IMG/VR virus record: IMGVR_UViG_3300028591_000120
DNA: 64,000 nt
Source: an uncultured virus (IMG/VR IMGVR_UViG_3300028591_000120)
Taxonomy: Duplodnaviria > Heunggongvirae > Uroviricota > Caudoviricetes
Reading direction: 5' to 3' (one strand)
A program made the translations under genes and the position numbers. Shown here in pieces: positions 59,056 to 62,593 of this stretch (its first letter is position 1; each line of letters starts with the position of its first letter). Under the pieces are notes generated by a model. The model saw nothing but the letters and a program-made list of their open reading frames with translations. It did no database searches and was not told where the DNA came from.

Positions 59056-59715
59056 TTATCCAATTACGCCGCGCACGGGGAGGCCTAAATAACGGACATG
59101 GGAGTACTGCCAATGCACGTGGAAACTACCGAAGTTCAAGCCGAGCGTAAGGAGCTTGGCTTCGTTGAAGAGAGAACTCGACCAATAGTAGCCGATAATT
59201 CCAACGTAGTAAGCATCGCCGTAGTTACAGAAGCCAGCAGCAGGGAAAAACAACACCTTGGAATTGTCAACCTTATCAGTTAAAACAAGTCCGGCGACGC
59301 CGCTGCCTTGATAATCAGTTGTCCATGCAGTTGTTACAGCCTTGCCTAAAGTGGCAAATTCATTTTTAGTTGGCATTCTCCAACCACCGCCCCAATTGGC
59401 ATGAACGGCATCGTCAGGCAAATCCAAAACCATTTTGCCGTCGGTAACATTATACTTTGTTATTTCAGAAATTGGCGTTCCATTGCTTCTGTAATGTTTA
59501 TAATCAGCCAAAGTAAATACTTTCTGTCTGGTTCCAAAGCCAACATCTGATGTTGTATATCCTTTGGTATCGCCCCATTGGAAATATAATCCATGGTCCG
59601 TAACTTTTTTTGCCCCGACATTCATGGTTGCCCACTTAATACCGGCAATTTCAACGTAGTCATGCCCATTAGCTAAGTATAACTCATATTGGCTTAAAAA
59701 TTCGCCTTTTTTCAT
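59056..59715 (-). CDS. C-type-lectin-fold DGR target-like protein, copy 1
   Basis: WATMNVGA, G.YFQWG, WRMPT..E, FFPAAG...GYYWSSS...R..G.PVRGV. Confidence 0.8.
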   Translation of the reverse strand: MKKGEFLSQYELYLANGHDYVEIAGIKWATMNVGAKKVTDHGLYFQWGDTKGYTTSDVGFGTRQKVFTLADYKHYRSNGTPISEITKYNVTDGKMVLDLPDDAVHANWGGGWRMPTKNEFATLGKAVTTAWTTDYQGSGVAGLVLTDKVDNSKVLFFPAAGFCNYGDAYYVGIIGYYWSSSLFNEAKLLTLGLNFGSFHVHWQYSHVRYLGLPVRGVIG

Positions 59716-59797
59716 TTTGCTATCTACTATTTGTTATTTTACGTTGCAAAGGTAATAAAAAAACGTGAATTATACAAATAATTCACGTTAAATAATG

Positions 59798-60244
59798 TTA
59801 AATGACCACTTCTGCTGCGTATAATATTCTTTTGGCAATTTTTGTATCTCCAAGTTCTTTTCTTACCTTATTAAAATCGCCCATGCTTGTGCCAAAATAG
59901 ATTTTATTGCCGCTTTTTGCCTCTGATTGCAAATACAGGCCAATTTTATCTGTTTTAAATGGCCAAGGCTCTTTATCATCATTTACATATACATAATCCC
60001 TAGCAGTAGCATTATCTTTGGAAATGTTGGTCAAAAACAGCTTAAAACGTGTTTCTATCCTTTGCACAAAGAAAACGGCTTTATATGCTCCAGCAACTTT
60101 ACCATTTTGCCCAACAATAATGGCATATATTGGATTGTTTAATATTATTAAATCCTCAACATTTTGTATTGGACTTTTATAAAAAGTATAATCCCTTTTT
60201 GGAATTAACATTTCTATTTCTTTATATTCTTTTATTATTGACAT
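59798..60244 (-). CDS. Hypothetical protein
   Basis: ORF track. Confidence 0.6.
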   Translation of the reverse strand: MSIIKEYKEIEMLIPKRDYTFYKSPIQNVEDLIILNNPIYAIIVGQNGKVAGAYKAVFFVQRIETRFKLFLTNISKDNATARDYVYVNDDKEPWPFKTDKIGLYLQSEAKSGNKIYFGTSMGDFNKVRKELGDTKIAKRILYAAEVVI

Positions 60245-60414
60245 TTTTATATAAAAATAGTTTCAGTTTTTATAATTGAATTTTCAGAATTTATTTTAAA
60301 TTCTGGATTCATATGTTTTTCTTGTGCTTTATTGCTTGTGGTAAGCATGACAATAATGCTAATTGCTATCATGCATAATGCTATAATACCAAATGCTAAA
60401 CTATTTTCCATATA

Positions 60415-61455
60415 TTAAACTACTTCTACTGCTGTTGGTACTGTGCTAATTAATGCGTTGTAAAATGGTTCGCCCCCACTATATTTTGCTATATCTTTCA
60501 AGGTTTCTCCCTCATCATTTGTCAGGTTCAATTTTACTGACGGCATGTTAAATAATATCTCGACAAGCCAATGTAAGTTCTTATATCCCATTGCAACCAT
60601 TATAGGTGTGTTGCAATCGGCATCCATAGCGTTCACATCAAATGTACTACAGTTTATTATCTCTTTTATAATCTCCCTGAATTTGTCTTCATTATAGTTA
60701 ACACGACTATCATGTGCATAATAAATCAATGAAGTTATTACTGGTTCGCCCCATCTATCTTTTTCATTGGGGTCAAAAAGAGGATTTTTAATTATTTTTA
60801 AGCACTCATTATACCTGTCCGTTAAGAAAAACATCATCATCCAATATAAAGAAGCTGGATTATTTTTTTGCTCTTCGCTAAAAGCATACTCAATTCTCTC
60901 TAAAATTGTTCTGTTGTATTGTGTTTGGCCAAAGCTAGCCGTGCTTTCAGTTACTTTTTTTATTGGCTTAATTCCAACCCTTTTTCTTGGCATACCATTT
61001 GCATCCTTATGTGCTTCCTTATATGCAAACAGCATCCCAAGCAGAACATCATTATTAAAGCGGTTGGCTATTGAAAATACATCTTCATTATCACTACGTT
61101 TTATTGATAAATCAACGTTCTTTTTGCTTAAAATGGCAGGAACAAGAAAGTTGAAATCTTTGCAAATTGCAATCGTCATCAAAGGAGTATTCCACCCATG
61201 AAACACGTTTGGATTAAAGCTTTCGTGATTCACTATGAGCGTTAATATCTCTTTCATGCTTTTTTGGTCCTTAATATGCGTTTTATTAACATTTAATCCC
61301 TCGATTAAATTGCATAATACCGGCATTTTATAAAAATTGTCGTATTCGTTGGGATTAAAATCTTTTGACGTAATAATATCAATAGCAGAAGCATAATCCT
61401 CTGTTATCATGGCACGATATAAAAGACAACTTTTTTGCGTATCTTCTTTAGACAT
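60415..61455 (-). CDS. Ankyrin-repeat protein
   Basis: NTPLMTIA, DVNAMDADCNTPIMVA, FDPNEKDRWGEP, NDEGET; two-fold internal duplication. Confidence 0.75.
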   Translation of the reverse strand: MSKEDTQKSCLLYRAMITEDYASAIDIITSKDFNPNEYDNFYKMPVLCNLIEGLNVNKTHIKDQKSMKEILTLIVNHESFNPNVFHGWNTPLMTIAICKDFNFLVPAILSKKNVDLSIKRSDNEDVFSIANRFNNDVLLGMLFAYKEAHKDANGMPRKRVGIKPIKKVTESTASFGQTQYNRTILERIEYAFSEEQKNNPASLYWMMMFFLTDRYNECLKIIKNPLFDPNEKDRWGEPVITSLIYYAHDSRVNYNEDKFREIIKEIINCSTFDVNAMDADCNTPIMVAMGYKNLHWLVEILFNMPSVKLNLTNDEGETLKDIAKYSGGEPFYNALISTVPTAVEVV

Positions 61456-61557
61456 AGTTTTTTATTACGATAAATTTATATTACCTAAATAGTTTGCCAT
61501 AATATTAATGACAATATTGCTATAATTAAAAATATAGCGCCAACAATAACTTCTTCT

Positions 61558-61842
61558 TTATTTTGCTTCATTTAATGTATCTGCATGTTGCTTTGCTAAA
61601 GAATCTGTATCGTTTATAATAATTTCCATTTGACATTTAAACTTGCCATCAAAAATATGATATTCTATGTCCTTACCATTTATCTTGCCCACATACACTG
61701 TTAAATGCGTGCGTATAGAATCGGTTGTATATATGTCATATTCAGTGAAATACACCTTTTTTATGTTTTTATTACCATTTGTGCATGATATAAACATAAA
61801 AAAGCTAAACAATAAAATGAATAAAAAGAATATCTTTTTCAT
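61558..61842 (-). CDS. Putative lipoprotein
   Basis: Signal peptide with FIS-C lipobox. Confidence 0.65.
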   Translation of the reverse strand: MKKIFFLFILLFSFFMFISCTNGNKNIKKVYFTEYDIYTTDSIRTHLTVYVGKINGKDIEYHIFDGKFKCQMEIIINDTDSLAKQHADTLNEAK

Positions 61843-61933
61843 AAAATTATATTGAGGATATTAATTGCTTGGGACAAATATACAAAAAAAACATGAGAAA
61901 TATTTAATCTCTCATGTTAAATTATGTTAAAAA

Positions 61934-62593
61934 TCATCCAATTACGCCACGTACGGGACAGCCGCAAGGACGGCCAATGGTGGACCGCCAATCCACGGTG
62001 CTACTATTGAAGCACAAGTTGAACGCGGCGAGCACATATCCGCGACGGAGAGAACTCGACCAATAGTAGCCGCCATTGCCAATGGCGAAAATGATACCAA
62101 TTTTAACCCATCCCGCAGCAGGGAAAAACAACACCTTGGAACTGTCAACCTTATCAGTTAAAATGAGTCCGGAAACGCCGCTACCTTGATAATCAGTTGT
62201 CCATGCAGTTGTTACAGCTTCACCAAGGGCGGCAAATTCCTGCTTTGTTGGCATTCTCCATCCGCCGCCCCAATTGGCGTAAACCATGTCATCGCATAAA
62301 TCCAAAACCATTTTACCGTCGGCAAATTTATACTTTGTCATTGCATAACTTGGCGTTCCAGCGCCGCTGTAATATTTATAATCGTCCAAAGTAAATGCTT
62401 TCTGCCTGATTACACCGCTAATATCTGATGCTGTATATCCTTTGGTATCACCCCATTGGAAATACAGGCCTATGTCAGTTACCTTTTTTGCTCCGACATT
62501 CATGGTTGCCCACTTAATGCCGGCGATTTCAACGTAGTCATGTCCATTGGCTAAGTACGACTCATATTGACTTAAAAATCCGCCTTTTTTCAT
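61934..62593 (-). CDS. C-type-lectin-fold DGR target-like protein, copy 2
   Basis: Same length (219 aa) and promoter/leader as copy 1; divergent C-terminal variable region. Confidence 0.8.
   Translation of the reverse strand: MKKGGFLSQYESYLANGHDYVEIAGIKWATMNVGAKKVTDIGLYFQWGDTKGYTASDISGVIRQKAFTLDDYKYYSGAGTPSYAMTKYKFADGKMVLDLCDDMVYANWGGGWRMPTKQEFAALGEAVTTAWTTDYQGSGVSGLILTDKVDSSKVLFFPAAGWVKIGIIFAIGNGGYYWSSSLRRGYVLAAFNLCFNSSTVDWRSTIGRPCGCPVRGVIG

Follow-up and report, generated by a model that had tools for sequence, protein, structure and literature searches.

Within a 64,000-nucleotide stretch of DNA from an uncultured virus of the Caudoviricetes (hereafter the window, the first 64 kb of the linear, 120,538-base IMG/VR record IMGVR_UViG_3300028591_000120, which is 36% complete according to CheckV) lie two paralogous genes, here called A (59056..59715) and B (61934..62593), whose C-terminal tips carry the marks of a diversity-generating retroelement (DGR). 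Both genes are on the minus strand and both encode proteins of 219 amino acids, 70.8% identical to each other. The ORF list, profile searches and a structure model describe the A protein as a single domain of predicted C-type-lectin (CLec) fold, Lcl_C/Fib_succ_major-like, with a 17-residue N-terminal stub; B was recognised as its paralogue from the ORF list, sequence comparison and profile searches. The initial annotation of the window had described the pair as 219-residue paralogues with copied promoters and leaders, and this holds: the ORFs lie where they had been placed and, when their upstream regions are compared, the leader and promoter of A (59716..59760, with a TAnnTTTG box at 59747-59754) and those of B (62594..62638, box at 62625-62632), likewise on the minus strand, share 41 of 45 bases, the box included. 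Only 28 of the next 55 bases are common to both genes, and nothing is shared downstream of the stop codons.

Comparison of A with B sets apart the tips, codons 162-215 of each gene (59071..59232 in A and 61949..62110 in B, minus strand). Codons 1-160 are 84.6% identical in DNA and codons 161-215 60.6%, with no insertions or deletions; as had been claimed, the last ~55 codons (59071-59235 versus 61949-62113) are colinear throughout, with 65 differences in 165 aligned bases. Codon positions 1 and 2 differ at 51 of 110 sites in the tip versus 35 of 320 upstream, an enrichment of about fourfold (Fisher p=4e-14). Third-position differences, which the initial annotation had also noticed, occur in the tip at the upstream rate (14/55 versus 39/160, p=0.86; a divergence of 0.24 in each). 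Thirty-two tip codons carry a change at position 1 or 2, of which 26 end in C or T in both genes and 24 keep their third base, in agreement with the earlier statement that most differences sit at positions 1-2 of C/T-ending codons. The GYYWSSSL scaffold, said to be fixed, is identical at the DNA level (codons 175-182). In the block formed by codons 190-209 (59089..59148 in A and 61967..62026 in B, minus strand), codon counts give 21 differences at positions 1-2 (11 and 10, respectively) and none at position 3, the chance of 0/20 third-position changes being 0.004 at the upstream rate. Codons 162-174, 183-189 and 210-215, by contrast, hold 13 third-position differences, eight of them of C/T type. 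The adenine-only variation of an active DGR target is thus clean only at codons 175-182 and 190-209, and the adenine-mutagenesis pattern originally proposed for the whole tip stands for part of it. Upstream of the tips, A and B have a second patch of variable amino acids, at codons 61-105 (59401-59535 and 62279-62413), with 18 non-synonymous versus 5 synonymous codons and no AAY pattern (Y being C or T).

The two proteins belong to a large family (1,665 proteins at E<=0.001; 4,638 50%-clusters at 1e-30). Profile matches over the C-terminal half are weak and lie below curated cut-offs (Lcl_C of Pfam, E=5e-4; TIGR02145, E 5e-3 to 9e-3), and a PDB sequence search, BFVD and PHROGs returned nothing for A or B. 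A structure model built from a 149-row alignment, with a pLDDT (predicted local distance difference test) score of 95, has CLec-fold chains as its top structural neighbours at middling Z scores of 5.8-6.8: the C-terminal domain of Legionella Lcl (Z 6.8, root-mean-square deviation (rmsd) 5.1, 108 aligned), Mtd (Z 6.1, rmsd 3.2, 128 aligned), TaqVP (Z 5.9) and TvpA (Z 5.8). Foldseek gave no match to the model at E<=0.001, the best being Mtd at E 0.22. A first model, from 35 rows and with a pLDDT of 48, had been set aside. On the strength of the second model, A and B are predicted to be CLec-fold proteins.

Evidence for a DGR origin of the tips comes from the family as a whole. Its C-terminal variable region (VR) holds 23 hypervariable, AAY-derived codons among fixed scaffold codons, and across 50 tip DNAs the third base of the hypervariable codons remains C or T. 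The residues K, E, Q, M and W make up 2.5% of 22 variable tip columns versus 15% of seven variable upstream columns (120 proteins), as mutation of the first two positions of AAY codons would produce. Twenty of the 23 hypervariable codons are not the same in A and B, and C or T is the last base of 22 of the 23 in A and of 21 in B. Six more distant loci (L042, L048, L051, L056, L062 and L072) possess target, template and reverse transcriptase (RT) complete, with 86-100% of mismatches at template adenines. Taken together, the AAY signature of the family, the CLec-fold model and the full cassettes of distant members make the DGR origin of the tips well supported. Departures from the 36 fixed non-adenine scaffold sites of the family number four in A and three in B; among 46 relatives, 23 show none and five show three or more (the mis-registered rows L146 and L156 were excluded from the 50 tips ahead of this count and of the sister-group and mosaic counts below). 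RT-centred surveys would miss a large set of DGR-written phage genes of this kind; remote targets escape RT-adjacent surveys (Roux et al.; PMC8144416).

The initial annotation reported no RT or template repeat (TR) in the window, and none is present in the rest of the record either. Its 120,538 bases, which extend ~58 kb either side of the pair, contain no RT, no template, no third tip copy and no match to a relative's Avd; the stretch between A and B (59798..61842) likewise has no RT, Avd or template. The proposed checks for an adenine-differing copy with an adjacent RT and for further targets thus came back empty for this 36% of the genome. No cognate template came to light when the record and 264 fetched loci were searched by BLAST and with adenine wildcards. 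Four template-type patterns run against IMG/VR gave three unrelated canonical DGRs for one pattern and 0, 1 (unrelated) and 0 matches for the others; template patterns run against GTDB gave 0 and 58 matches, none cognate, the closest departing from B and A by 16-21 non-adenine mismatches in 105 bases, though many are Bacteroidales template and RT pairs of the same class. INPHARED and PLSDB held no DNA match, and tblastn matches reached 24-29% at most, six of them in Lak phages. Matches in DGR-bearing Bacteroidales genomes were merely 24-29 bases long, in four of five. No N-rich, template-like stretch occurs in 267 stored proteins. Three short template-like ORFs proved to be ordinary gene fragments, and of two scaffold-pattern matches one is a family gene and the other arose by chance.

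Nearly the whole record is contained in one sheep-gut metagenome, and we consider it a piece of a gut jumbo phage because its marker protein matches those of five complete records of 401-413 kb (G002, G005, G006, G008 and G009; 54-71% identity, with G008 nearest). RT is absent from four of these five ~400-kb relatives. G002 has two DGRs, distant from its family copy and with templates that match other genes. DNA searches able to detect tips 73-85% identical found no family template in G002, G005, G006 or G008; G009 was covered by RT and protein-copy searches only. At the ends of G002 (L168:12848-14915 and L169:1-2474) and at L131:1613-8936, two complete DGRs are paired back to back, and each has a target of its own beside it.

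A different picture is given by a sister group of twelve tips (L002, L003, L029, L031, L032, L034, L117, L126, L131, L135, L154 and L155). In its closest pairs the tips differ by 0.00-0.07 at third positions and by ~0.3 at positions 1-2, the regions upstream differ by 0-4% at positions 1-2, and 52 of the 55 polymorphic columns of the group include adenine. Judged by these patterns, the sister-group tips look freshly adenine-mutagenised. The complete genomes G002 and G008 each carry a sister-group tip and no template, and G008 also has no RT; lack of a local DGR does not alone imply dormancy, because the sister tips are fresh in template-free complete genomes. None of 401 genomes from the family of one rumen Prevotella matches a sister-group tip. 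Beside the family gene of one member (L031:2983-3657) only Avd and a 62-residue RT tail are left of a decayed DGR.

Many family relatives are followed by a hairpin with a conserved loop and a variable stem (fold z -4.4 to -6.4 in 3/3 chosen examples), which suggests a landing signal that may be common to different template types. There is no hairpin behind A (z +2.0) and only an AT-rich stem behind B (z -1.2); allowing two mismatches, the window contains no copy of the conserved loop motif, and the loop pattern has no match in the record. Either the hairpin or a shared post-stop block follows 23 of 46 relatives but neither A nor B, which thus lack the initiation of mutagenic homing (IMH) site and downstream hairpin of an active DGR target. 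The same hairpin stands behind tips of differing template types at L034:10649, L058:798, L089:1400, L131:10669, L137:8614, L147:3985, L154:4593 and elsewhere. Just behind some family genes lie extra tip cassettes with no gene start (L092:7008-7196, L054:4841-4951 and L055:10583-10693), possible recombination donors.

Other alleles and strains bear on how A and B vary. A third allele, P0002, forms one clade with A and B on the scaffold tree (support 0.95) and has the same residue as A or B at 19 of 23 hypervariable positions, in blocks A-B-A; in 495 sister-group triples the background is 7.5 residues of 23 on average and 14 at most. This mosaic counts for recombination, as fresh rewriting would not recreate the same residues. 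In a second sheep sample, contig X3 (depth 3.6) is identical over 58500-59195, which covers A codons 174-219. Strain X4 is ~97% identical over 60179-61957 (48 differences, 18 gaps), but its B tip (61958-62111) has been exchanged for 139 other letters, 15 fewer, in frame and <80% alike, with no differences in the 53 and 52 bases flanking the exchange. Such a change is compatible with retrohoming or with cassette recombination, and the change in length may slightly favour the latter. No variant tip contig is listed for the likely source run. Runs X6-X8 contain, as a small share at low depth, a relative whose tip differs but whose stop-side end is the same, and were not used as evidence.

We favour the view that A and B are orphaned DGR tips, now changed by recombination of tip segments and by point mutation and likely no longer rewritten from a template, and would give it a probability of about 0.5. 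The feature itself is real; present DGR activity on A and B is, on balance, doubtful. The initial proposal is thus supported in part: the DGR origin of the tips holds up well, whilst for a remote DGR presently acting on A and B no template or RT turned up in the 36% of the genome covered, and no cognate template elsewhere. Dormancy is indicated by the equal third-position divergence of tip and upstream region, unlike in the fresh sister-group pairs; by scaffold departures exceeding those of most relatives; by the missing conserved-loop hairpin; by the identity of the A tip in a second sheep sample; and by the lack of RT, Avd and template in the record together with the lack of RT in four of five complete relatives.

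The ancestor would have been a phage family gene of ~250 amino acids with an N-terminal module of ~40 residues and a DGR-written tip, followed in about half of cases by a shared post-stop block or hairpin. The A/B lineage would have lost most of the module and the landing hairpin, acquired a host-type early promoter and then duplicated, leaving copies that may now vary through exchange of tip segments between alleles and through point mutation. Among 113 parsed close members, 40-59 residues precede the core in 84 and 10-19 in only three; the figure for A, B and P0002 is 17. Of 45 genes checked, three (A, B and L104) have an early-type TAnnTTTG box in front of them. A ligand of the variable surface would probably be met inside the infected cell, the early promoter suggesting a host-cell target rather than a virion receptor; the non-tail role envisaged for A and B would fit both this promoter and the shortened N-terminus.

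Several observations weigh against orphaned, dormant tips. The absence of the hairpin or post-stop block carries moderate weight, since only 23 of 46 relatives have one and the search patterns were derived from these very sequences; members of the sister group show signs of fresh mutagenesis though their complete genomes lack the template; and codons 190-209 retain a perfect adenine-only pattern. In X4 the tip was exchanged whole, an outcome that a DGR would equally bring about. The identical contig X3 may derive from the sampling campaign that also supplied the source, and P0002 might preserve an ancestral-like state from which A and B departed by partial retrohoming once duplicated. Finally, the record is 36% complete and a DGR may sit in the missing part.

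That a remote or helper DGR acts on A and B at all falls somewhat short of an even chance in our judgement, and it could do so from two places. A DGR in the ~64% of this phage's genome that is not assembled, with A and B as live targets at a distance, would account for the clean block and the unitary replacement in X4; one complete relative does keep two DGRs far from its family copy, and phage targets not adjacent to their DGR are documented, for the most part no more than 50 kb away (Wu et al.; PMC5758913). We nevertheless find this unlikely: the eight C/T third-position differences go beyond what one template could give, nothing turned up in the ~58 kb that flank the pair on each side, four complete relatives have no family template, and neither the P0002 mosaic nor the missing hairpin would be expected. 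Occasional rewriting in trans, by a DGR on the host chromosome, a prophage, a satellite or a co-infecting phage, is on the unlikely side too. It draws on the sister tips, some 30% different at positions 1-2 above an upstream background of 0-4% and housed in G002 and G008 without a template (in G008 without an RT as well), on TR and RT pairs of the same class in gut Bacteroidales genomes, and on the trans action from a plasmid shown for BPP-1 (PMC5758913); but this reasoning applies better to the sister group than to the hairpin-less A and B, pattern searches of IMG/VR and GTDB gave no cognate template (16-21 non-adenine mismatches in 105 bases at best in GTDB), and the 401 genomes of the rumen Prevotella family gave no match to a sister tip. 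A broader scheme, in which ~400-kb rumen jumbo phages keep targets and landing hairpins and outsource template and RT to another replicon, with A and B as early, non-virion targets, is likewise improbable.

Two further explanations dispense with DGR activity altogether. Positive selection on a binding surface could have driven apart tips that had never met a DGR, as the variable patch at codons 61-105, with its lack of an AAY pattern, and the altered non-adenine scaffold sites in codons 162-174 of B might suggest; this is very improbable given the depletion of K, E, Q, M and W from the variable columns, the C/T endings of the hypervariable codons in both genes and the six distant loci where a true template and an RT adjoin the target. 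Hardly credible is an assembly artefact: the source-run contigs do break within shared stretches, yet overlapping ones tile 58500-63500 with 0 differences, one of them spanning 59311-62213, other runs cover parts identically, and A and B differ by 15% upstream of the tips.

Four genes, all on the minus strand, lie between A and B, encoding proteins of 148 (59798-60244), 54 (60247-60411), 346 (60415-61455) and 94 (61558-61842) amino acids. The third is an ankyrin-repeat gene with only seven other homologues (38-53% identity) and no close relative carrying it in IMG/VR; its NCBIfam match to AnkG is weak (22 bits versus a cut-off of 500) and reflects generic ankyrin similarity. Contigs from RNA runs overlap part of gene A and give no evidence of transcription. 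Directly past the window's end (G000 64064-65353) is a 429-residue gene that, judged by eye, has at its start the full N-terminal module mostly lost in A and B. The AT-rich promoter block with the TAnnTTTG box recurs in dozens of copies, at 14800-36400 in the window and elsewhere, many as back-to-back pairs. We take this box to be the Bacteroidales sigma-A -7 consensus, and on that assumption the promoters point to a Bacteroidales host. The window also encodes an Ala/Lys-rich repeat protein with tandem units of 66 nt (25813-26613) and has three tandem 107-nt copies at 32121-32441. Two ~400-residue ORFs at G000 107219-108418 and 116581-117843 presumably resemble TnpB/IS605-type genes.

Dormant tips are of modest interest in themselves, as they show an afterlife of DGR products in which a binding surface is kept, duplicated, given an early promoter and shuffled by recombination. 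The location of the sister-group template is the more interesting lead: if it proved to be carried by a different replicon, DGR action across replicons in nature could be tested directly. No title or abstract opening in the literature searched concerns this family in rumen jumbo phages, and supplements may list such targets.

Among known systems, the Bordetella phage BPP-1 DGR (Mtd VR, Avd, TR, bRT, IMH and hairpin) shares with A and B a CLec-fold tip with the adenine-position pattern, and the hairpin of the relatives, variable in stem and conserved in loop, matches the rule of Guo et al. (2011; PMC3240598). Unlike the BPP-1 target, A and B are not of tail-fibre size and have neither hairpin nor linked machinery. 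Remote DGR targets are a second comparison: Wu et al. (2018; PMC5758913) describe non-adjacent or remote targets, in Treponema denticola and for 45 of 372 DGRs, and do not expect far-remote ones for phage DGRs. Like these, the A/B-type targets are several, dispersed and related in their tips, with no RT nearby; but the assignment of those remote targets relied on a template, present in the genome of each, from which they differ at adenines only; no such template was found here, and A and B cannot both come from one template by adenine changes alone. The same tip architecture is found in Bacteroidales DGRs with PAAG...YWSSS...R.YG.SVR.V targets (the six distant loci above and GTDB loci among L207-L264; 32-42% protein identity for the phage loci), which, unlike A and B, carry template and RT beside the target, none of their templates being cognate to A or B. 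Closest in kind are the CLec2 or category 'd' targets (DUF1566 = Lcl_C, DUF823 and Fib_succ_major; Legionella LdtA type), for which weak, mixed domain matches are typical (Wu et al. 2018). A and B resemble them in being short and single-domain, with a C-terminal variable region, weak Lcl_C/Fib_succ_major matches and a CLec model, and differ in that no template, RT, Avd or, by eye, lipoprotein-like signal was found, in their partly drifted tips and in their early-type promoter. The pair thus works like a CLec2 or category 'd' DGR target that has parted with two tested features of an active one, adenine-only variation and the IMH with its hairpin, and is best described as an orphaned target of that type.

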